From Candidatus Thorarchaeota archaeon (GTDB lineage Archaea; Asgardarchaeota; Thorarchaeia; Thorarchaeales; Thorarchaeaceae): DNA of 32,736 nt. A program made the translations under genes and the position numbers. Below the pieces are notes generated by a model, which saw nothing but the letters and a program-made list of their open reading frames with translations, did no database searches and had not been told where the DNA came from. Shown one piece after another: positions 15,463 through 30,973 of the stretch (its first letter is position 1; every line of letters starts with the position of its first letter). The stretch is from assembly GCA_016839445.1 (NCBI GenBank), contig JAEOUG010000102.1, forward strand, positions 1 to 32,736, in the 5' to 3' direction.

Positions 15463-16068
15463 ATGAGCCACCGCGAAGGGGCCCCTGCTGAAGACCCATT
15501 CCATATGGACCCGAAGGATGTCCTCTCACAGTACAGCGTTGAGTGGGTATCTCTGAGAAAGTCGTATGATGAACTGAAGGAGCGGCTCAGCGAGGTTCAG
15601 GCGGAGTTGAGCGCACTCGATCGGAGACTCGAGATGGGCGTGATGGATGACCAGCAGCACATCAAGCAGTACCGAGAGAAGTGGGCAGAGTCAACCCAGA
15701 TGATACAGGTAAAGCGTGAAGTCGAGAGTAGGCTCTTCGAAATACAGAGAGAGATTCGTGCAGCAAATCGCCAGTTGAAGAAGCAAGAGGAAGAGCGAGT
15801 CAGGCGGGAACGAATAGAGCAGGAGCGCGCCAACGCGATGATTGAGTGGATGTCGCTCAAACAGGGCTTCGACTTGGTAGGTCAGCGAAGAAAGGAAATC
15901 AACGCCGCAACAGACAACCTTGAGAGAGAGCGTAGGAGCGGGGCCATTTCAGAACAAGAATACAGGCAGAAGAGAGTAGAGCAGATCCAGCAGCTTGCCG
16001 AATTGCGCACCGTTGAGTCAGATGTGAAGAACCGTCTTGCGGAGTTGCTGGCAGTCATCCGGGGATAG
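15463..16068 (+). CDS. Coiled-coil protein made of two tandem helical-hairpin repeats (CdvA-like coiled coil)
   Basis: AGGAG RBS. Repeats EWVSLRKSYD...GVMDDQQH...EVESRLFEI and EWMSLKQGFD...GAISEQEY...DVKNRLAEL. Confidence 0.8.
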   Translation: MSHREGAPAEDPFHMDPKDVLSQYSVEWVSLRKSYDELKERLSEVQAELSALDRRLEMGVMDDQQHIKQYREKWAESTQMIQVKREVESRLFEIQREIRAANRQLKKQEEERVRRERIEQERANAMIEWMSLKQGFDLVGQRRKEINAATDNLERERRSGAISEQEYRQKRVEQIQQLAELRTVESDVKNRLAELLAVIRG

Positions 16069-17483: not shown

Positions 17484-17629
17484 TGGGAATCACTCACCAA
17501 CAGTGTTAGCGGACGGCCCGCACCATGGCATGTAGATAAATGAATCGGATTGGTACAGCTTCCTAGAAGGTGGGCAGAACAAGAACAGTCTTTAGAAGCT
17601 GCGCGGAAGAATCACAAGAGGAGGAGTCT

Positions 17630-18274
17630 ATGTCAACGTTCGAGCAGGAATGGGTTTCGCCAATCCTTGAGGTCTACAAGAAGAGGAAGATCACCGAGGA
17701 GTACTCGGTCATCCTTGGACTCAACCCAGTTGGACAAGCTCTCTGCAGACATCTCTACGAGAGGAATGACTTCGAAACGGTCCTTCTCTTCAACTCACCG
17801 GCGTTCTCGTCTTGGAGTCGCTATCCAGCAGACCTGAAGCCACCGGTGGTGCCTGTTCATGGAATGGTTGCTGACGAACTGATGCTCGTGTTCGGGGACA
17901 TAATCATCAAAGAGCATGACTGGATGACGGACCTCCTGTTCTACATCAGAGGCAACGTTCCAACGAGATTCGTCATATCGCTGATGACCCATGACGGACT
18001 AACATGTGCACAGGTCACGTCCAAGAAGGGGGAGCGACTCTTGAGGAGGATGGACGTGCCGCTGGGAAGAGCTGATTTCTACGACTCTGTTTCCGCCCCT
18101 CTCATCAGCGCGGGAACAGCCGCGGGGCTTGACGTCGTGATTCTGTTCCTGGAATCCATTTCTGATGAGGTTCTCCTGCAGATTGACGACGAAACTGTCA
18201 CAAGAGGCGAGGTAGAAGCAGGACTGTCCCTGATTCTGAGAGGACTCAATCTGGAAGTATTTAATACGGACTAG
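17630..18274 (+). CDS. Hypothetical protein, possibly a divergent PAC2/proteasome assembly chaperone family member
   Basis: ATG 17630 after GAGGAGGAG. The pattern VILG.NPVGQ..CRHL...F.SPAF...L.LVFGD...SAPLISAG...GLDVVIL...L..ILRGLNLEV follows the PAC2 alpha/beta layout. The family call is inference. Confidence 0.65.
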   Translation: MSTFEQEWVSPILEVYKKRKITEEYSVILGLNPVGQALCRHLYERNDFETVLLFNSPAFSSWSRYPADLKPPVVPVHGMVADELMLVFGDIIIKEHDWMTDLLFYIRGNVPTRFVISLMTHDGLTCAQVTSKKGERLLRRMDVPLGRADFYDSVSAPLISAGTAAGLDVVILFLESISDEVLLQIDDETVTRGEVEAGLSLILRGLNLEVFNTD

Positions 18275-18987
18275 GTGTCATCGCTCGTTCGCCCGTATCC
18301 TGTTCGCGTTCTCCCACCGAAGGCCTCGTAACGTTCGTCAGGGCTCCTATCAGACAGACGCTCGTCACAGTCGTAGCACATCAGGGCTTTGGTTTCTCGA
18401 ACGTTAACGATGTTGCCACACGAAATGCACGTCCAGAGGCCACCCTGCAACAGCTTCGTCTTCCTGAAAACCGCACGTGCCATGTCCTTTAGAGATTCAG
18501 GGCAGCCCTCGGCAACTCCAACTACGCCCTGTTCGGACCACTCGCAAATCACTGACACCAGAGTCGTCATCAGCTCAATGATGCGAGTTGTTCTATCTTC
18601 GATCTCGCGTGAAGACTCTGACTTCGTGTCGCGATGCGCATCAGGCAGTCCTGAGAGCAACTCGATGAAGGCAAAGAACGCGGGGGCGGGGAAATTGTCA
18701 GGTGCTCGAGCTTCTACCATTTGACCCAGGACAGCAGAGATCATCAACGTCTGCGTGTAGTCTTCCTGGAGTATTCTCTCAGCCTCGACAAGTATCTTGT
18801 CCACTCGAATGCTGTACTTCTCGGGAGGCAGGCCCCGGCTCTCTGCAATCTCTCTGACGGCGCTGAGAAGGCCTTTTCCTTTACTCATCATACGATTGAC
18901 ACGACGAGCTACCGAGCCGTATGGAAGGCCAGCGTCGGTTGCCAACTCCTGAAGAAGCTCTCTGGCGGTCACACTCAATAGCAGCAC
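18271..18987 (-). CDS. Hypothetical helical protein with a C-terminal C4 Zn finger
   Basis: Motif WTCISCG-x12-CYDC. GAGG RBS near the start; its stop overlaps that of the convergent gene. Confidence 0.75.
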   Translation of the reverse strand: MLLLSVTARELLQELATDAGLPYGSVARRVNRMMSKGKGLLSAVREIAESRGLPPEKYSIRVDKILVEAERILQEDYTQTLMISAVLGQMVEARAPDNFPAPAFFAFIELLSGLPDAHRDTKSESSREIEDRTTRIIELMTTLVSVICEWSEQGVVGVAEGCPESLKDMARAVFRKTKLLQGGLWTCISCGNIVNVRETKALMCYDCDERLSDRSPDERYEAFGGRTRTGYGRTSDDT

Positions 18988-21151: not shown

Positions 21152-21931
21152 CTATATGTCACTAAACCAGAGCTTCTTCTGGGCTGCTATGAGCAGACTC
21201 TCCGCGGCTCTCTTGTCCATACCTGCGATGCTCGCCAGCTGTTCAGGGCTGGTCCCAACGAAATCAGTCGTCGTAGCTATTCCCGAATTGAGTACAAGAT
21301 TGATGACTGGTTCAGGAGTGTCGAGTTCAACGAGTAGGTCTCGCAAACTGGCAACCGTATCCGCACTGGCCTTTGGTGCCTCGACACCAGGCATCTCAGA
21401 TCCGAGTTCATCGTCTGAGTCCTCCGTCGACTCCTTCAACGCTGCGAGCTCGGGCATCTCGCCTGCCGCTCCGTACTTGCGTATGAATGATGGCCTGAGG
21501 AGAAATACACCCAGAATGGCCGAAGCTGCCAGGAGGGGAATCAGTAACACATTGCTGATGTCAATGCCGATGATAGCTCCTCCAGGACCGAATCCCACCA
21601 AGGCAGAGACTGTGTCCTGGGTGAACAAGAATGTGAAGGATGTGCCTGAGAGGTCCGTGAACAGAATCAACCAGATTGGTGTGAAGATACCCAGACTCCC
21701 AGCCTCATAGATGAAGAACTCCCGAAACACCTGCCTTCTAACGAAGTATACGACCAGAGGCGGGGCTACCACGAGACCAACAGATATGACGAACCAGATT
21801 ACGTAGACATTCCAGAGAGCAGCCAACAGGACTGCATCTGCGCCGTGACGGGCGATTTTGATTATCATTGCTCCCAGGAATATGACCCCTGAGAGGATAG
21901 CACCTACAAGCACGCCATGAGCGTATCTCAT
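21152..21931 (-). CDS. Membrane protein (about 4 TM) with an acidic linker and a C-terminal helix-hairpin-helix (RadA-NTD/NusA-AR-like) domain
   Basis: GAGGTGAG RBS and four hydrophobic segments, then the linker ESTEDSDDE. C-terminus LVLNSGIATTTDFVGTSPEQLASIAGMDKRAAESLLIAAQ. Confidence 0.8.
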   Translation of the reverse strand: MRYAHGVLVGAILSGVIFLGAMIIKIARHGADAVLLAALWNVYVIWFVISVGLVVAPPLVVYFVRRQVFREFFIYEAGSLGIFTPIWLILFTDLSGTSFTFLFTQDTVSALVGFGPGGAIIGIDISNVLLIPLLAASAILGVFLLRPSFIRKYGAAGEMPELAALKESTEDSDDELGSEMPGVEAPKASADTVASLRDLLVELDTPEPVINLVLNSGIATTTDFVGTSPEQLASIAGMDKRAAESLLIAAQKKLWFSDI

Positions 21932-22147: not shown

Positions 22148-22318
22148 ATGAGTTTTACTGTAAAGAAAGCAGTACAAGACTACGCAAAGAAGAAGAACCT
22201 ACAGGTTGCGGGCGACTTCTACGGTGCCCTTGACAAGCACATTGAGAAGATGCTTGACTCTGCTGCCAAGAGATGCGGCGAGAACAAGCGCAAGACTCTC
22301 AAGCCATACGATCTGTAA
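22148..22318 (+). CDS. Histone-fold protein, short alpha3-truncated ('face-to-face'/Bd0055-like) type, 56 aa
   Basis: Below the ORF-track size cut-off. My translation: MSFTVKKAVQDYAKKKNLQVAGDFYGALDKHIEKMLDSAAKRCGENKRKTLKPYDL*. It has the L2 motif RKT-x4-D, a strong RBS, a TATA box upstream and a hairpin downstream. Confidence 0.88.
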   Translation: MSFTVKKAVQDYAKKKNLQVAGDFYGALDKHIEKMLDSAAKRCGENKRKTLKPYDL

Positions 22319-22335
22319 ATCAATCTGATGCCGGG

Positions 22336-22373
22336 AGTGGGAGCACAGGCGGTGCTTCCACTATTCTCTTTTT
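22336..22373 (+). terminator. Stem-loop with a U tract after the histone gene
   Basis: AGTGGGAGCAC-AGGCG-GTGCTTCCACT forms an 11-bp stem with one G-U pair, followed by ATTCTCTTTTT. Confidence 0.7.
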
Positions 22374-22431
22374 CATAACGTCACTCTTATCAGGTCCGAG
22401 TAGTCCCCCTCGTGACAAGGAGAAGTCTTCA

Positions 22432-23220
22432 TTGTACAGAGTATGCCTCACCAACGACGACGGACCTCTGAGTGACAACCTGCTTAGATTGGCAGATGCC
22501 CTCAAGGACAAGGTTGAGCTCTTTGTCGTCGTGCCAGACGGACAACGTAGTGCCTCAGGGAAAGCATTGACTCTCAAGAGACCTATCAGACTGACTGAGA
22601 AACACGAGAAGAGGGGTTACAGCTTCGTGAGTCATGATGGGGTGCCGGCGGATTCCGTCATCCTTGCTCAGTGGTTCTACAAGGATCTAGACCTAGTAGT
22701 GTCCGGCGTAAACACTGGGGCAAATGTAGGCTATCAGAGCATTCTCACTAGTGGTACTGTTGGGGCCGCATTGGAGGCCGCCCTGAGGGGCATCCCTGCT
22801 ATCGCAATCTCTCAGGAAGCTCGACCTGAGGAGTGGTTCAACTCCACCGGTGGCAAGCGTTGCTTCGAGATGGTGTGCCAGACATCAACCAAACTCATAA
22901 TGGACATACTTGAGAAAGGCATGCCGAAAGGTATTGACCTCCTGAACCTCAACTTCCCTCACGAGCCGACCGAAGACACCAAGATTGTGGTGACAAAGCC
23001 AACCAAGATTCGGATGCACAATGAAGTGGAGGAGCGGCTCGACCCGAACAAGATGCCATACTACTGGTACCTGGGTCTCGAGAGACCACCCATGGCAGGA
23101 ACAGATGCACACGAGGTCCTCGTGAATAACAACATATCACTTACTCCACTCGTGCTAGATTGGGTTAACGATGTCGAGATAGAGAATCTTCGCGATTACA
23201 TCTCTCCTAGAGACGCTTGA
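22432..23220 (+). CDS. surE: 5'/3'-nucleotidase SurE
   Basis: Motifs LTNDDG, P...RSASG, G.PADSV, VVSGVN.GANVG and SGTVGAA.EA. Start TTG 22432 after AAGGAG; the ORF-track extension overlaps the histone gene. Confidence 0.93.
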   Translation: MYRVCLTNDDGPLSDNLLRLADALKDKVELFVVVPDGQRSASGKALTLKRPIRLTEKHEKRGYSFVSHDGVPADSVILAQWFYKDLDLVVSGVNTGANVGYQSILTSGTVGAALEAALRGIPAIAISQEARPEEWFNSTGGKRCFEMVCQTSTKLIMDILEKGMPKGIDLLNLNFPHEPTEDTKIVVTKPTKIRMHNEVEERLDPNKMPYYWYLGLERPPMAGTDAHEVLVNNNISLTPLVLDWVNDVEIENLRDYISPRDA

Positions 23221-24208
23221 CTCGCTCGAGGGCGGCCCAAAGGGCGTCGGTGGCGGGCCTCTGAATTCTCGAGCCATTGTATGTTTCTCTGACGCTGGGA
23301 TCGCTTGTAGTTTCTCCGATGACAGCAGCTTCGATTCCTTCCTTCTCTATCGCCCTTATCACATCTTCAGAGTTGCTGCTCTTGCACGTCAGAATCATAC
23401 ATCCGCTGCTGATGAGTTCCATCGGGTCGATGGCGAGAGTTTCGCAGATGCGTGATGTGGACTCATCTGTCTTTATCGCTGCCACATCTATTCGGAAGCC
23501 AACTCCGCTGGCGTCGCAAATCTCGTGGAGACCATTTGAGACCCCTCCCTCTGTAGGGTCGTGCATCGCGGTGACATGTCCGGTTCGGAATGCAGCAAGA
23601 CCGTCCTTGACCACGCTAATCCTGTTTCGGAGAGAGATCGCCTGGTCAACAATACGCTGGCCAAGCAGGGCCGTCAGCTTCTCACGGCCCTCAGAGGCAA
23701 GAATAGCGGTTCCCTCAGGGGCTGCACACTTCGTCAGAACGATAGCATCGCCAGGCTTCGCTCCACTGGATGTGACGAACTGGCCATCTTCTGCGACTCC
23801 CAACATGAAGCCGGCGGCAATTGGCCTGTCAATTCCCGGGGTTATCTCTGAATGACCACCCACAACTGCAATATCGAGCGAACTGGCAGCCTTGTGAACC
23901 TGATCAACAATGTGCTCAATCTGCTCCTCTGTACAGCCAACGGGCAGCATGAGCGATGCCAGGAACCATCTTGGTGCCACGCCAAAAGTGGCAATGTCAT
24001 TGGCATTGACGTGCACAACTAGCCAACCCAGATCTTCGATAGAGCCTGTGATAGGATCAGTTGCAGCTATGATCACCTTTTGCCCGACCTTCAGTACAGA
24101 CGCGTCCTGCCCCAGGCCAGGGCCTAGGATGACATCCGGGTCGGAGTGTCCAAGATGCTTGAAGATGATGTTGCTAAGAATGTCCGGCGGAACCTTTCCT
24201 GGTTGCAT
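23207..24208 (-). CDS. AIR synthase-related (PurM/HypE/ThiL superfamily) protein
   Basis: Motifs GKVPP..L, GPGLGQDAS, TDPITG, VHVNANDIAT.G..P, VGGHSE, GAKPGD, MHDPTEGG and LISSG. Start ATG 24208 after AAGGAG. Confidence 0.88.
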   Translation of the reverse strand: MQPGKVPPDILSNIIFKHLGHSDPDVILGPGLGQDASVLKVGQKVIIAATDPITGSIEDLGWLVVHVNANDIATFGVAPRWFLASLMLPVGCTEEQIEHIVDQVHKAASSLDIAVVGGHSEITPGIDRPIAAGFMLGVAEDGQFVTSSGAKPGDAIVLTKCAAPEGTAILASEGREKLTALLGQRIVDQAISLRNRISVVKDGLAAFRTGHVTAMHDPTEGGVSNGLHEICDASGVGFRIDVAAIKTDESTSRICETLAIDPMELISSGCMILTCKSSNSEDVIRAIEKEGIEAAVIGETTSDPSVRETYNGSRIQRPATDALWAALERVKRL

Positions 24209-24386
24209 GAGTTGGACTCCTTCAGTAGGTGCGCACTCGCCCTGTGCCTTGTGCATGAAAAGCAGGTTCATTGAAACCCAGTTCAGGGCACTCCTTGCTC
24301 ACTATGACACGAGGCGACTCTCGGGCGATATGCGCAGCCCAACGAGAGAGTCCCCGCTAATAATCTAATCGAGATGGCAACTTCGT

Positions 24387-25865
24387 CTACGCAGGTAGGT
24401 ATGCTTCGACTTCTTTGAGGTCCTGCGTTCTTAGCCGGGACTTCGAACGGCTCTGGGAGAGTATTGCGCCTATGATGGAGCCCTCTGCCATCAGCTCTCG
24501 AGATAGATAGGCCCGGCCACCAGCTGCGCGGGCTATGAGATAGGCGCCGAAAGTCCGGCGGAACTCATCCACCGCCAAGATCGTCTCAATCGGGTCCTTG
24601 TATCCCTCCTTTCTGCCCCTGAGGAGGGCCGCCAACTCAAGCGCGTCGTGGTAGGGGCGCTTCAGGAAGCTGGACCATCTTCTTTGCTCCAAGTCGACAT
24701 TCACGCAAGCCAGCTGAACCTTCTGTTTCTTCAGCGTTCTTGCCGCCCTGACCAAGTCCTGTACAGGAGTGAATTGCGCATGGCCAGGACCAACAGACTG
24801 CGCAAGGGGGATGTTGGGAGAGAAGTCTGAGATAAGGATCACAAGAGCCTCGATATCCTCATTGCGCATCCGCTCTCTCCTGATGGTCTCCATAGCTTTC
24901 TTCAATGCATCTGCCAACGGTGTGAGCCCTGAGATCTTCAGACGACCGAGGGCGCGATACAGCTTGTTCCAATTAGTGGTTGGCGCCTGTACCTCCACAG
25001 CACCGCTGTCTTTGAACGCGATGATCCCGGTACGATCCTTGGAGCCCCTAGTCTCAGCCTCAAGACGCTCGATGAACTCCCTCACCTGCTCGATGCTACC
25101 CTTCATGGAAAGGCTCACGTCAATGACAAGCATGATAGTCAGGGGTGTTCGTCCAGTGAACACACTCTCACGGACATCTTCCTTCTTTATCGCAATCGGG
25201 AGCTCGCGTTCAATGCCAGACCTTGCGGCCGCTGCAATCACGGTCGATGGAATGTGGATGTTGGTAATCTCCCGGGAGGGAATTCGAGACCTCACAGGTC
25301 TTCCGTGCTTCATGGCATCAGAAGCCTTCAATGAGCCCGTTGCACGAGACCTCGTGCTCTTGTTGATCCATCCTCCAGATGACACTTTGGAACGAATCAT
25401 AGCCCGGCGCCTAAGCTTCTCAAGATCGAAGACCTCTTCGCCGGTGTCAATGTCAGGGGTCTTCAGGAAGAAGCCGTCGTCGAGGTCGTAGGGAGAGTCT
25501 CGAATCTCAGACTTCGATCCAGTGATGGCCGTCTTCTTCTGAGGTGCATATGGTCGTGTCGCCAAGCCCCACTCATCGCCAGGCTCCGGGTATCCCATTC
25601 CTGGCTCAACAGTGTCAATCCCTGCCGCAGGCCCACTCTTCCTTCTGGTCATCACTTCCAACCACTTCTTCGCCAGACGGTACATCAGAGGTGCGTAGAT
25701 TAGCACGTCTATGATTATGGCCGGCCATGGAGGGAACTCGAAGAGCTGTGCGCCAAATAGCCAGTTGACCGGACTCACGTAGAGCCACGGGAAGAAGGGT
25801 AGAATGACGAAGAGCATTACGGCGCAGATGGTCCCCTTGATGGGATCACCCTGGGGGTTTCTCAC
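24387..25865 (-). CDS. chlD: ChlD/BchD-type C-terminal module (VWA/integrin-I domain) preceded by two hydrophobic helices; probably also made as the -1 frameshift extension of the upstream ChlI-like ORF
   Basis: MIDAS motif DVSLS...GLTPL...ISD and the ChlD pre-VWA pattern GRPVRS...ST..AAA...I.KEDVRE. The GTG start overlaps the upstream TGA (GTGA) and has no SD directly upstream. Confidence 0.8.
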
Positions 25866-27058
25866 TTTTTGTGGAGCTTTTTTTTTCCTTCTTGCTCCCC
25901 ATATTGAGCGAAGCGGGACTGGCGACCAAAGGAGCCACCGCTCAGCCTTGTGCCCTTCTCACCATCTTCCTCTTCTGGAGGAACTTCAGTCGGTGACTTC
26001 CGCGTCTTGCTCCTCTGAGATATCTCAGTAGCCTTTGTAATCGCTCGGTCAATGTCATCTGGAGACGGGGGTTCGAGAAGTCCGCCCCTTCTGGTGCGGT
26101 GGCTGAGGGCTAGCTGAGAGGCAATCTTCATGTCTTCCAGACTGACCTCCATCCTCCCTTCGAAGGCAGCATTGGTTATAGAGGCCTTGCTAATCACGAT
26201 GTCTGGCCTGACTCCATCGACTTCGAGCGCGTCACAGGCCATGGCGATTGCGCGAAGGTGATAATCTTTCAGTACTACATCGCCCAGAATCTGCTTGGCT
26301 TTCTCAATGCGGCTTCTGAGCTCATCCTGTCGATCCGTCCATGCATCACGAAAGGCCATGGGGTCATCCTCGAAAGCCAAGTTCCTACGAACGAGTTCCA
26401 TCCGGTCATCAATGCTGTGCTGTGCCGTCACATTGACGTGGAGGGGGAAGCGATCGAGGAGCTGAGGTCTGAGTTCGCCCTCTTCAGGATTCATCGTCCC
26501 GATGAGCACGAAGTTGGATGGATGAGAGATCGATATGCCCTCTCGCTCGATCACATTGACCTTTGTTGCAGCAGCGTCAAGTAAATCGTCAACAAGATGA
26601 TCTGGCAGTAGATTGACTTCATCTACGTAGAGAACGTTCTGGTGTGCCTCGGCGAGGATTCCCGGTCGGAGAGCTTGGATTCCTTCCTTGAGAACCAGTT
26701 CAATGTCTAGGGAGCCAATGAGTCGATCTTCTGTGGTCGATAGAGGAAGGTTGACAACTCGCATCTTGCGGCTCTTGGTCCTAAGAGTCTCCTTGGACTC
26801 GACTCTCGAAGCACATTCCTCACAGAGGAACTCAGGAGTATCGGGATTGCAGCCGAAGCGGCATCCCTCAACGATACTTACCTCCGGGAGGAGGTCTGCA
26901 AGAGCACGGACAACTGTGGTCTTACCCGTACCCTTTGGACCCGAGATCAAAACGCCACCAATCTGAGGGTTGATGCCATTCAGAACCAAAGCGAGCTTGA
27001 GATTCTCAAGGCCCACTACTGCGGTAAAGGGCATTGTCGCTCGCTTGAGTTCGCTCAT
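25862..27058 (-). CDS. chlI: Magnesium/cobalt chelatase ATPase subunit I-like AAA+ protein (ChlI/BchI family)
   Basis: Motifs [23 protein letters not shown] (Walker A), [36 protein letters not shown] (Walker B), [18 protein letters not shown] and L.HR.RR, followed by an acidic/Pro linker. Confidence 0.93.
25877..25886 (-). other. Slippery A9G run (A_AAA_AAA / A_AAA_AAG), candidate -1 programmed frameshift site
   Basis: The minus strand reads GGA AAA AAA AAG CTC CAC AAA AAG TGA. The -1 frame reads AAA GCT CCA CAA AAA GTG AGA with no stop, straight into the VWA ORF. Confidence 0.7.
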
Positions 27059-27145
27059 TCCACCACTTCAGATAGGCTATCTACAGCTGATTCCTCTTGA
27101 CAGGCATAAATAAGACTGTTTGTGCACGTAAGGAGAGTGGTCTGG

Positions 27146-28303
27146 TTGATTTCCCACATCACACACCTCGAGTGTCCACAATGTAGGAGAAAGCATTCAG
27201 TTGAAGCGAGTGCAACTTTCTGTGTGTGTGGTTCACCTCTGTTCGCTAGATATGACCTCGCCCGAACAACCGAGGCCGCCAAGAATGAGGAGTTCCCCTC
27301 AGAGATTAACTCCATGTGGAGATATTCGCAGCTCCTCCCGGTGAAGTCCCCCTCATGTATTGTGAGCCTTGGGGAGGGATGGACACCGCTGATTACCTCA
27401 AGACGACTGGGCACACACTTGGGGATGAAGCTTCTCAGGATCAAGGACGAGGGGCAGAATCCAACATCGAGCTTCAAGGACAGAGGACTCTGCGCAGCAA
27501 TATCAAAGCACATAGAGTTGGGCGCCACTGAGTTCGCAATTCCTTCCGCTGGAAATGCAGCCGTTTCAACAAGCGCGTACGCTGCCGCGTCAGGGGCCAA
27601 GGCGCACATCTTCATGCCATCTGACACACCCGAGCCCTTCTTCTCTGAGTGCGAGCTCTTCGGAGCCGAGGTTGTACGAGTTGAAGGCAACATCTCAGAT
27701 GCAGGAGCAGAGATGGCCGCTAGGGGAGGCCAATGGACAGCTCTCTCCACGACAAAGGAACCATACCGCGTTGAAGGGAAGAAGACGCTGGGCTTCGAGA
27801 TATGTGAACAGCTGGGATGGAGAGTCCCTGATGCTGTGATTTGCCCCACAGGCGGCGGCACAGCGGTGATAGGCATCTGGAAGGCATTTGAGGAGCTTGA
27901 ACAGATTGGGCTAATCGGAAGAGAGCGGCCCAAGATGTACGCAGTACAGAGTGAGGGGTGCGCGCCTATCGTGCAAGCCTATGAGAAGGGACTGGAAACG
28001 GTAGAAGCGTGGCATGGGGGAGAAACAGACGCTCTCGGTCTCAGAGTACCAAGTCCCTTTGCGGGAAGACTAATCCTCCAGGCTCTGAGACACTCAGGAG
28101 GAGCAGCCGTGGCCGTCGCAGAACAGGAGATTGCCACCACTAGGCGAATGGCAGGCAGGATGGAAGGAATGGATCTATGCCCCGAAGCGGCAGTGGGCAT
28201 CGCAGGTCTGCGAAACCTGGTTGAGTCAGGGCAAATCGACTACGATGAGGAAGTTGTGCTACTGAACACAGGTAGCGGTTCAAGATACACGAATGTGAGA
28301 TGA
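27146..28303 (+). CDS. thrC: Threonine synthase
   Basis: N-terminal CxxC..C.CG, then MWRY..LLP, SLGEGWTPL, NPTSSFKDRG (PLP Lys), SAGNA, EGKKT and PTGGG. Probable start TTG 27146 after AGGAG. Confidence 0.9.
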   Translation: MISHITHLECPQCRRKHSVEASATFCVCGSPLFARYDLARTTEAAKNEEFPSEINSMWRYSQLLPVKSPSCIVSLGEGWTPLITSRRLGTHLGMKLLRIKDEGQNPTSSFKDRGLCAAISKHIELGATEFAIPSAGNAAVSTSAYAAASGAKAHIFMPSDTPEPFFSECELFGAEVVRVEGNISDAGAEMAARGGQWTALSTTKEPYRVEGKKTLGFEICEQLGWRVPDAVICPTGGGTAVIGIWKAFEELEQIGLIGRERPKMYAVQSEGCAPIVQAYEKGLETVEAWHGGETDALGLRVPSPFAGRLILQALRHSGGAAVAVAEQEIATTRRMAGRMEGMDLCPEAAVGIAGLRNLVESGQIDYDEEVVLLNTGSGSRYTNVR

Positions 28304-30191: not shown

Positions 30192-30857
30192 TTATGATTC
30201 TGCTTCGCGTTCTCGCTCTTCTCGGGCTTCTCGCTCAAGATCTTCCAGGAGCTCGTCGATTCGCTTGTCTTCTGGAGTCCCTGTCTTCGAGGATGATGAG
30301 GCAGCCTCACCTTCAGCTTCCAGAGGTGGCAGTACTCCTTCTTTCTCGAGCAATACCTCGGCCTCCATTGCGTCGAGCTCCCTGTCGATCCGCTCCTCCA
30401 TATCGAGAGTTGTGTCTGCTCCAGTCAGATCTTCTGAGAGAAGCTCACCAGCTATGGAGATGTGTTCAAAGGACTCCGACAGCTTGTCGAGCTGCATCTG
30501 AATCTCTTCCGGCTTCAACATGGACCTAGCCTCGGTGAGAGCATCGTTCGCGATGCTGAATGCTCGAAGAACCTCGGCCTGAGTCTTTGCTTCCTCCAAG
30601 TTCAGTAGAGCGGTCTCAAGTGTGAGGAACTGCTGCTGGTAGCGATTCCTCCGATTCTCCAGGTCGACAACGATGCTGAGGTGGGAACGAGCGAGGGAAC
30701 GATTGCCTTTTGACATGGCTTCCTTGGCGCTTTGCTGCTCCTCAGTCATCCTAGTCTCAAGTCTTCTGACTCTAAGCGTCAGGGCATTCATTGTGCCTTT
30801 CATTTCCAGAATGCCGCGTTCTGCATCGACCTTCTTCTTGCCGCTAAGGAACCCCAT
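30192..30857 (-). CDS. ESCRT-III / Snf7-family protein (Vps20/32/60-like)
   Basis: Basic helical hairpin (LRVRRLE...AKEAMSKGNRSLARSHL...LETALLNLEEA), then V..AF..ANDAL, EEIQ.QLDKL.E, and an acidic tail (EERIDRELDAMEAE...LPPL...IDELLEDLE). Start ATG 30857 or GTG 30866. Confidence 0.85.
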   Translation of the reverse strand: MGFLSGKKKVDAERGILEMKGTMNALTLRVRRLETRMTEEQQSAKEAMSKGNRSLARSHLSIVVDLENRRNRYQQQFLTLETALLNLEEAKTQAEVLRAFSIANDALTEARSMLKPEEIQMQLDKLSESFEHISIAGELLSEDLTGADTTLDMEERIDRELDAMEAEVLLEKEGVLPPLEAEGEAASSSSKTGTPEDKRIDELLEDLEREAREEREREAES

Positions 30858-30973
30858 ATCTTCCACCTAGTAGGTCCTTGTTGTCCTATCTCGTCACCTG
30901 AGCCATTTAAACAATTGTAATCTGTAACGCACAATAGTTATATCACCATAGAATAGACAAATCTCGATTTGAT

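Follow-up and report, generated by a model that had tools for sequence, protein, structure and literature searches.

A stretch of 32,736 nt from Candidatus Thorarchaeota archaeon (NCBI GenBank assembly GCA_016839445.1, contig JAEOUG010000102.1, positions 1 to 32,736 of the forward strand), hereafter called the window in its full length, was found to contain a minus-strand locus in which an open reading frame (ORF) for a ChlI-type AAA+ ATPase, ORF1, runs into a second, ORF2, that specifies a predicted two-helix membrane hairpin and a VWA domain. ChlI/ChlD-type motors are known as soluble parts of Mg- and Co-chelatases. We propose that the Thorarchaeial locus is a slippage gene with two products, a soluble ATPase and a membrane-anchored AAA+–hairpin–VWA subunit, which would co-assemble on a client that is not a tetrapyrrole; we consider this reading probable, if by no means certain. 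What was observed of it is how the locus is built, that this build is conserved, that slippage is required, and that CobN and HemB are absent. The evidence is computational throughout, and the genomes compared are mostly metagenome-assembled genomes (MAGs). They comprise a class survey of 87 species-representative genomes, 24 of which are at least 90 % complete with no more than 5 % contamination (the window's own genome is 89.8 % complete), and a junction set of 48 loci, window included, which remained from 30 + 20 collected after two of the 50 were dropped for having no upstream sequence. A homologue of ORF2 was present in 73 of the 87 class genomes, and in 21 of the best-quality 24.

A ChlD-like protein with a predicted membrane hairpin

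In order to place the two ORFs, we compared them with curated protein families. ORF1 matched the Pfam families AAA_5, Mg_chelatase and AAA_lid_2, and its NCBIfam matches were TIGR02442, 'putative cobaltochelatase' (positions 2–343, 459.5 bits against a cutoff of 779.45), TIGR02030, BchI-ChlI (386.7 bits, cutoff 466.95) and TIGR02031, ChlD/BchD (234.4 bits, cutoff 499.55); no curated NCBIfam cutoff, be it for ChlI, for ChlD or for the fused cobaltochelatase, was thus reached. These ChlI-type models outscored by far the MoxR-type models, which likewise fell short (AAA_3, 18.9 bits versus 27; bpMoxR, 20.3 bits versus 27). ORF2 matched TIGR02442 at positions 401–619 (100.5 bits) and TIGR02031 with 60.6 bits. 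With the TIGR02442 and domain matches split over both frames, ORF1 and ORF2 are, as judged from these matches, the two halves of one ChlD-like protein, in which the chelatase-type module order is present (N-terminal ChlI-like AAA+, C-terminal VWA with a MIDAS, or metal-ion-dependent adhesion site). Additionally, the AAA+ module contains a C-x3-C-x8-C-x2-C motif (positions 26813–26863, minus strand; ORF1 residues 66–82) that looks like a zinc-ribbon-like insert and was invariant in 18 of 18 Thorarchaeial orthologues, as well as in 11 of 11 proteins of other archaea that carry transmembrane (TM) segments, here termed TM-type. A defence-system reading was considered and rejected, PADLOC having returned weak generic AAA matches for ORF1 and none for ORF2 or the AIR-synthase-like neighbour.

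The hairpin lies at the head of ORF2, of which positions 25670–25865 (minus strand) make up residues 1–65 (Table 1). Hydropathy was calculated after Kyte and Doolittle (KD) in a 19-residue window with the usual cut of 1.6. The first helix, TM1, peaks at 2.18 in the window, with a mean of 2.24 and a minimum of 1.80 over the 48 junction loci; no stretch of ORF1 reaches the cut, its maximum being 1.40. All 48 loci have a hydrophobic hairpin (values for the second helix, TM2, are weighed further below). Across the same loci, Lys plus Arg residues average 5.88 (minimum 4) in the 18-residue N-terminal flank and 4.88 (minimum 4) in the 18-residue C-terminal flank, the mean in the core of ~50 residues being 0.02 (maximum 1). 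This charge pattern fits a positive-inside hairpin with both its N- and C-terminal ends in, an orientation that would leave AAA+ and VWA both cytoplasmic. AlphaFold2 (AF2), run on a 20-sequence alignment, predicted helices at ORF2 residues 8–21, 24–30, 33–36 and 47–74, with predicted local distance difference test (pLDDT) values of 68–86 over residues 11–70 and a mean of 64.6 for the ORF2 model.

Beyond the hairpin follows a linker with an identity of 0.70–0.74 and many invariant residues, most of which is predicted to be disordered (pLDDT <50 for residues 75–141 and 156–201), with short AF2 helices at residues 118–123, 148–155 and 205–216. Strong conservation combined with predicted disorder suggests that this region folds on a partner. 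The VWA domain (Pfam VWA_2/VWA match at ORF2 residues 244–393) has a confident AF2 fold, and its MIDAS residues D249, S251, S253, T315 and D347 were invariant in 20 of 20 aligned orthologues. BchD (2x31) was the sole sequence match in the PDB, and a fold search returned generic VWA domains only (Rpn10, ANTXR, NorD, BatB and the Rea1 MIDAS), with nothing bearing on the C-terminal extension. The latter, for which block-mean pLDDT is mostly 80–91 over residues 401–470, is common only to the fused relative P0123 described below, up to profile position 468. An earlier note on this DNA had described two hydrophobic segments followed by basic residues, a helical hairpin leaving AAA+ and VWA cytoplasmic, an intact MIDAS, a long C-terminal extension and a slip site that joins the frames. 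Our comparisons agree with it on each point: the hairpin recurs in the orthologues with basic flanks on both sides and an uncharged core, the extension is predicted to be helical, and the frame relation is borne out in the section that follows.

To see how widely the AAA+–TM–VWA order occurs, 1.84 billion cluster representatives were searched with a profile, giving 2250 matches at E ≤ 0.001. The Thorarchaeial cluster scored 834 bits. Next among full-length relatives came P0123, an in-frame protein of 862 aa, with 209 bits; P0123 and the Thorarchaeial family share the linker, the VWA domain and the C-terminal extension. Among the best 150 of the 2250 matches were many single-ORF proteins of 775–1060 aa with two, and sometimes at least four, segments of KD ≥ 1.6; these TM-like segments lie at approximately residues 385–450, right after the AAA+ module, and have basic flanks. 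At least four such segments were found in P0139, P0147, P0163, P0165, P0166 and P0178. TM-like segments between AAA+ and VWA were present in 23 of 37 full-length representatives near the Thorarchaeial family. Named members belong to Thor-/Promethearchaeota, Bathyarchaeota, Hodarchaeota and Thermoprotei, and public records label the TM-type members generically, 'AAA family ATPase' and 'VWA domain-containing protein' being examples. The P0123 type occurs as an in-frame fused gene in 19 of 19 genomes of the sister Asgard family (f14), and other Asgard families have fused forms of 720–890 aa, with TM-like segments in some and not in others. For this sister family, apparent internal stops in the fused genes were also considered as readthrough sites and rejected, as they proved to be an N gap or to lie upstream of the start.

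A quick-method tree of the AAA+ module from the 37 representatives (23 TM, 14 non-TM) required six changes of the TM label, versus a mean of 11.4 when labels were shuffled. The Thorarchaeial representative P0121 and P0123 were sisters (SH-like approximate likelihood ratio test, SH-aLRT, 97). The TM trait as a single clade was rejected: the label is clustered and not monophyletic, and the tree is poorly resolved. We further collected 79 ChlID-like loci of other species, and none of the bacterial loci among them carries the hairpin. At one of the archaeal loci, L064:5690-9235 (Bathyarchaeia), a complete AAA+–TM–VWA gene (792 aa) is preceded, at a distance of 9 nt, by a separate chlI-like gene (387 aa); by sequence comparison, two genes there yield the product pair that Thorarchaeia encode via slippage. 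From these matches, the architecture is not unique to the Thorarchaeial lineage and belongs to a wider, unannotated archaeal group.

The hairpin might be more than an anchor. It could be a working membrane module, in which the six hairpins of a hexamer (12 helices) form a pore or a metal or ion conduit, with the mid-membrane Asp/Asn and the loop motif acting as functional residues. In line with this, the Asp/Asn of TM2 is found in 45 of the 48 loci, the xP(I/L/V)N motif of the loop in 42 of 48, residues W27, P32, G38, P45 and P59 are each at least 90 % conserved, and the wider family includes the forms with at least four TM segments. We nevertheless regard a pore as unlikely: by identity the hairpin is the least conserved segment of ORF2 (0.59–0.72 versus 0.82 for VWA), it cannot be aligned between the Thorarchaeial family and the other TM-type archaeal proteins, whose profile matches begin at position 135 or later, and relatives with long linkers and no TM segments are interspersed in the tree. 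Low identity and lack of alignment therefore favour a tether over a specific catalytic membrane module, and low identity is what one would expect if hydrophobicity is the main constraint on an anchor. A bolder proposal, to which we give a distinctly small chance, is that TM-type ChlIDs are a hitherto unrecognised, archaea-wide class of membrane-embedded AAA+ machines, with a conduit formed by the ring of hairpins, in which the chelatase-type motor and its MIDAS domain would load a membrane-protein client with metal, remodel it or translocate it, the Thorarchaeia tuning the ratio of subunits by slippage on the A run. If it were true, a machine of this kind, occurring where tetrapyrroles are not synthesised, might reflect what the ChlI/ChlD motor originally did before it came to serve chelatases.

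The A run at the junction of ORF1 and ORF2

ORF1 ends just past a run of nine A, inside which the Lys codons near its end fall. Starting ~30 codons upstream of the GTG listed as the head of ORF2, the −1 frame is free of stops and reads across this run; in the window, the GTG overlaps the stop codon of ORF1 (GTGA). A run of 8–11 A was kept at the nucleotide level, third codon positions included, in 47 of the 48 junction loci (nine A in 33, ten in 9, eleven in 4 and eight in 1). In the remaining one, L042, it is interrupted, and an A7 run abuts the zero-frame stop. Relative to ORF1, the frame of ORF2 is −1 in 42 of 48 loci, of which a script scored 41; the other, L003, was read by eye as −1, an N gap having misled the script. 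At four further loci (L018, L025, L032 and L039) ORF2 is in frame with ORF1, giving ORFs of 893–913 aa, and each of these has exactly one A more than its nearest relatives; a JGI protein of 880 aa is an additional in-frame form. As an observation of its own, the variation in run length among relatives (L018, L025, L032, L039, L034 and L042) could be allelic and phase-like, or could reflect homopolymer assembly error.

At its head, ORF2 has the codon ATA in 22 loci, GTA in 14, GTG in 8, ATT in 2, and GTT and GTC in 1 each, and a start codon is consequently lacking in 40 of 48. Furthermore, ORF2 codons 1–16, upstream of the first conserved Met, vary in the manner of coding sequence, with an entropy of 0.51 bits at the first codon position, 0.28 at the second and 1.48 at the third (47 loci; L043, which has a one-codon insertion, was dropped). 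The peptide ahead of TM1 has a mean column identity of 0.82, equal to that of the VWA domain, and is among the best-conserved parts of the protein. In at least six loci (L031, L035, L037, L038, L041 and L043) the −1 frame becomes open only at the run, whose 5′ edge carries a TAA in that frame; as the zero frame meets its stop 5–6 codons further downstream, the shift is pinned to the run. Taken together, the missing start, the coding-type variation, the A run and the in-frame alleles argue that the ORF2 frame is entered by slippage. On this comparative evidence, the long product, of a predicted ~890 aa, would be made via slippage on the A run, ribosomal or transcriptional, and not by independent initiation. 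A constant run length of at least nine would suit transcriptional slippage; the A7-plus-stop arrangement of L042 would suit a ribosomal heptamer. Two smaller observations concern the same region. Conservation of the peptide ahead of TM1 exceeds what a mere spacer before a membrane anchor would need. In some sequences, mostly from the window's genus, a small CUCC-GNRA-GGAG hairpin was seen by eye, uncounted, directly 3′ of the run; it is not family-wide and was missed by the structure-prediction program RNAalifold.

Two readings without slippage must be weighed against these data. ORF1 and ORF2 could be two translationally coupled genes, for a soluble ATPase and a TM–VWA protein in the manner of MoxR with BatA/BatB, with no recoding at all. 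Such an arrangement would account for the overlap of GTG and stop in the window, for the ATG at codons 16–17 that nearly all loci conserve, and for the 475–477 aa proteins beginning at that ATG which public gene callers annotate. We judge it improbable, as the head of ORF2 offers a start codon in only eight of the 48 loci, the 16 codons before the first Met behave as coding sequence and are very well conserved, the A run is preserved down to third codon positions in all loci but one, and exactly one A separates the in-frame alleles from their relatives. Alternatively, the true gene could be a plain fused ORF, with the frame break being a homopolymer assembly error or the mark of a decaying pseudogene. 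Homopolymers are error-prone, and four genomes and the JGI protein are indeed in frame. Nonetheless, 42 of 48 genomes, each assembled independently, show the same −1 offset, with runs of 9, 10 and 11 A and matching flanks, and both frames are intact and conserved, which makes an artefact very improbable.

Table 1. Features of the slippage locus and its downstream neighbour (positions in the window; residues are those of ORF2, counted from the listed GTG)
Feature	Position	Strand	Basis
ORF1, ChlI-type AAA+ ATPase, 398 aa, zero-frame product	25862–27058	minus	Pfam, NCBIfam
A9 run (T9 on the plus strand), slip site from the ORF1 frame to the −1 frame	25878–25886	minus	
ORF2, 492 aa from the listed GTG, −1 frame relative to ORF1	24387–25865	minus	
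Pre-TM peptide (V/I)RNPxGDPIKG(T), −1 frame, before the first conserved Met	25836–25865	minus	Conservation
Predicted TM helix 1, residues 11–30	25776–25835	minus	Hydropathy, AF2 helices 8–21 and 24–30
Uncharged short loop, residues 31–46, xP(I/L/V)N motif, predicted on the non-cytoplasmic side	25728–25775	minus	
Predicted TM helix 2, residues 47–62, conserved mid-helix Asp/Asn	25680–25727	minus	Hydropathy, AF2 helix 47–74
Basic juxtamembrane stretch, 15 residues (RLAKKW...RRK), predicted cytoplasmic flank	25635–25679	minus	
Linker, residues 78–243, Pro/acidic PEPGDEWG and other motifs	25137–25634	minus	Alignment, AF2
VWA domain with complete MIDAS	24681–25136	minus	Pfam, alignment, AF2, fold search
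Helical C-terminal extension, residues 396–492, and stop codon	24387–24680	minus	AF2 helices 405–487
AIR-synthase-related gene (PurM/HypE/ThiL/SelD-like), downstream, co-directional	23207–24271	minus	

Absence of CobN and HemB

The large subunit on which a chelatase motor would act was looked for with the Pfam family CobN-Mg_chel (PF02514), which was found in none of the 87 class genomes, the window's own included; the same search was positive in five named control genomes. HemB (porphobilinogen synthase, PF00490) is needed by every tetrapyrrole pathway. It was absent from 86 of the 87 class genomes by a search that was positive in 11 control genomes, the single match, in G021 (a genome 80 % complete), lying on a small contig. 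Among the 79 ChlID-like loci of other species, 16 have CobN within 6 kb (Pfam-verified), and none of these 16 has hydrophobic segments between AAA+ and VWA. TM-type loci among the 79 were L064 (Bathyarchaeia), L080 (uncultured archaeon), L131 (Thermoproteales) and L133 (Thermoproteota); no CobN lies near them, four loci being too few for a test.

With CobN/ChlH in 0 of 87 and HemB in 1 of 87 class genomes, an ordinary tetrapyrrole chelatase was ruled out, and what the motor acts on is probably neither chlorophyll nor B12. A variant of that idea holds that the protein is the medium subunit (ChlD/CobT type) of an ordinary cobalto- or magnesium-chelatase whose CobN/ChlH partner is encoded elsewhere; the best NCBIfam match, which covers both ORFs, does bear the name of a cobaltochelatase and orthologues are named 'Mg-chelatase subunit ChlD' in sources, yet with every curated cutoff missed, CobN lacking even from the 24 best-quality genomes, HemB all but absent and the CobN-adjacent loci all devoid of a TM hairpin, it has next to no chance of being correct. 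In a passage of a paper on Bathyarchaeota, chlD/chlI in MAGs without cobalamin genes is taken as a hint of chlorophyll synthesis (PMC7110647); our results call for caution in treating 'chlD/chlI' annotations in archaeal MAGs as a sign of chlorophyll or B12 chemistry.

Proposed working, related systems and neighbouring genes

Membrane insertion, co-assembly and the nature of the client are the parts of our reading that we infer. Normal decoding would give the soluble 398 aa ChlI-type AAA+ ATPase. A one-base slip on the A9 run, be it a −1 ribosomal frameshift or RNA polymerase inserting one A, would give the protein of ~890 aa, consisting in order of AAA+, the conserved peptide, a hairpin with both ends in the cytoplasm, the flexible linker, the MIDAS-bearing VWA domain and the helical tail. 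If ChlI/ChlD and MoxR/VWA pairs are a guide, the AAA+ module, identical in the short and the long product, would let the two co-assemble. An ATP-driven ring would thereby be placed at the cytoplasmic face of the membrane, and the proportion of free to anchored subunits would depend on how efficient slippage is. The VWA/MIDAS would hold the client at an acidic patch, as described for NorD on NorB. That client would most likely be a membrane or membrane-proximal protein, the task perhaps being metal insertion or remodelling, as with NorQ/NorD on NorB.

Several points weigh against this reading. The TM2 peak in the window is 1.38, below the 1.6 cut and the minimum of the 48 loci (mean 2.07, range 1.38–2.54); the window therefore has the weakest copy of an otherwise clearly hydrophobic segment. 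The transmembrane assignment of the hairpin is itself a prediction, drawn from hydropathy, charge pattern, conservation and the model. The sister Asgard family mostly lacks a separate ChlI-like gene at E ≤ 1e-20 and has the fused gene only; therefore, a free short subunit is not universally required. Two loci depart from the −1 rule, namely L007 (a G missing upstream) and L034 (the A8 run). As regards recoding signals, RNAalifold found 0 consensus pairs downstream of the run in 48 sequences, pseudoknots not being covered, and the 88 nt taken from the window alone gave a fold no better than that of shuffled sequences (z = +0.49). Nothing was placed on the locus from four metatranscriptome runs searched at 80 % likeness. 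The conserved ATG at codons 16–17 lies inside TM1, and an extra, independently initiated TM–VWA protein could be made from it. The AIR-synthase-related neighbour is conserved within one taxonomic family only. Finally, no client was found, and a role as remodeller of a membrane client, resting on analogy, is put forward as a candidate.

Canonical ChlD, BchD and CobT are soluble, have a Pro/acidic linker and act on a large ChlH/CobN subunit. The Thorarchaeial protein resembles ChlI/ChlD (BchI/BchD) and CobS/CobT in its ChlI-type AAA+ module, a remnant of the Pro/acidic linker and the VWA domain with MIDAS. It differs in having a hairpin before the Pro/acidic stretch, a linker ~140 aa longer, the C-terminal extension, scores below cutoffs, and a class in which ChlH/CobN was not found and HemB occurs once in 87 genomes. 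BatA and BatB, the poorly understood aerotolerance proteins, are TM-anchored VWA proteins encoded beside a MoxR ATPase. As with these, a predicted TM-tethered VWA is here paired with an AAA+ ATPase, and the fold search matched 3ibs and 4jdu; by contrast, the Thorarchaeial AAA+ is below the MoxR AAA_3 cutoff, and its anchor sits between AAA+ and VWA in a single polypeptide. NorQ/NorD offers a third parallel, a MoxR AAA+ with a VWA partner that matures the membrane-bound nitric oxide reductase, the NorD MIDAS holding an acidic patch and acting on NorB, as set out in parts of PMC9976466. An AAA+ ring with a MIDAS-bearing VWA adaptor acting from the cytoplasm on a membrane protein is what we propose for the Thorarchaeial pair, and NorD structures 9qhe and 9qh8 are among the many that its VWA fold matches. 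Unlike it, NorQ is of the MoxR family and not ChlI-type, NorD is soluble and separately encoded, and no frameshift is involved.

Closest in gene structure is fs-chlD, described by Kuznetsov, Milenkin and Antonov 2022, who cite Antonov 2013 and 2020 (PMC9227772). According to the main text of that paper, normal termination of the one gene gives a ChlI-sized product and a −1 shift at an A/T-rich slippery site gives a ChlD-like AAA+–VWA protein; 'stage 1' carriers have an orphan fs-chlD with neither chlH/cobN nor either of the two pathways, and the function of their complex is stated there to be unclear. The Thorarchaeial gene is alike in that its frame breaks at a conserved slippery site between AAA+ and VWA, the zero frame ending soon after with a ChlI-sized product. 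It is different in that a two-helix hairpin follows the slip site, which is itself a homopolymer of 9–11 A with no downstream structure detected, and in that its carriers are Asgard archaea. The words membrane and transmembrane have 0 occurrences in the text of PMC9227772, and a search of open-access texts, with the supplementary figures of that paper excluded, found no description of a membrane-anchored ChlD.

Frameshifted and orphan chlD are thus already known, and it is the membrane hairpin that was not found in print. The earlier note's view that the architecture was undescribed holds for the anchored ChlD; the frameshift and the orphan state are published, and in-frame AAA+–TM–VWA proteins occur in other archaea; the Asgard search that it had suggested for ChlI, TM and VWA in one architecture yielded the homologues reported above, with the fused form throughout the sister family. 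Its observation that no CobN/ChlH is encoded in the window extends to the whole genome and class, and of its suggestion of a remodeller in place of a tetrapyrrole chelatase, the second half stands, with remodelling of a membrane client still conjectural. If our reading is right, a ChlI/ChlD-type motor has been kept class-wide in Asgard archaea that lack the substrate-binding subunit and tetrapyrrole synthesis, its long form being anchored, and the published puzzle of the orphan fs-chlD would gain a handle in the membrane and a MIDAS client. With 48 genomes, an A run conserved at the nucleotide level and natural in-frame alleles, the locus is also among the clearest comparative cases of programmed slippage in archaea.

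Around the locus, the gene order is thrC (threonine synthase, divergent), ChlI/TM–VWA, the AIR-synthase-related gene and SurE (convergent), at window positions 22273–28303, an order kept in all examined loci with enough flank (L002–L050, Thorarchaeial family). The AIR-synthase-related protein scored below every NCBIfam cutoff, its best match being HypE (114 bits versus 251.6). In the sister family, the sole AIR-synthase-like gene lies ~3.5 kb away and is 24–28 % identical. The linkage may be inherited synteny, and we make no claim for the gene as a functional partner, the linkage being confined to a single family. Elsewhere in the window, four ORFs of 201–259 aa had no Pfam match at E ≤ 1e-4 (15463–16068 and 17570–18274 on the plus strand, 18271–18987 and 21152–21931 on the minus strand), the last of these having no NCBIfam match either. 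A Snf7/ESCRT-III family gene (30192–30866, minus strand; Pfam Snf7, 61 bits) fits the Asgard archaeal origin of the DNA.

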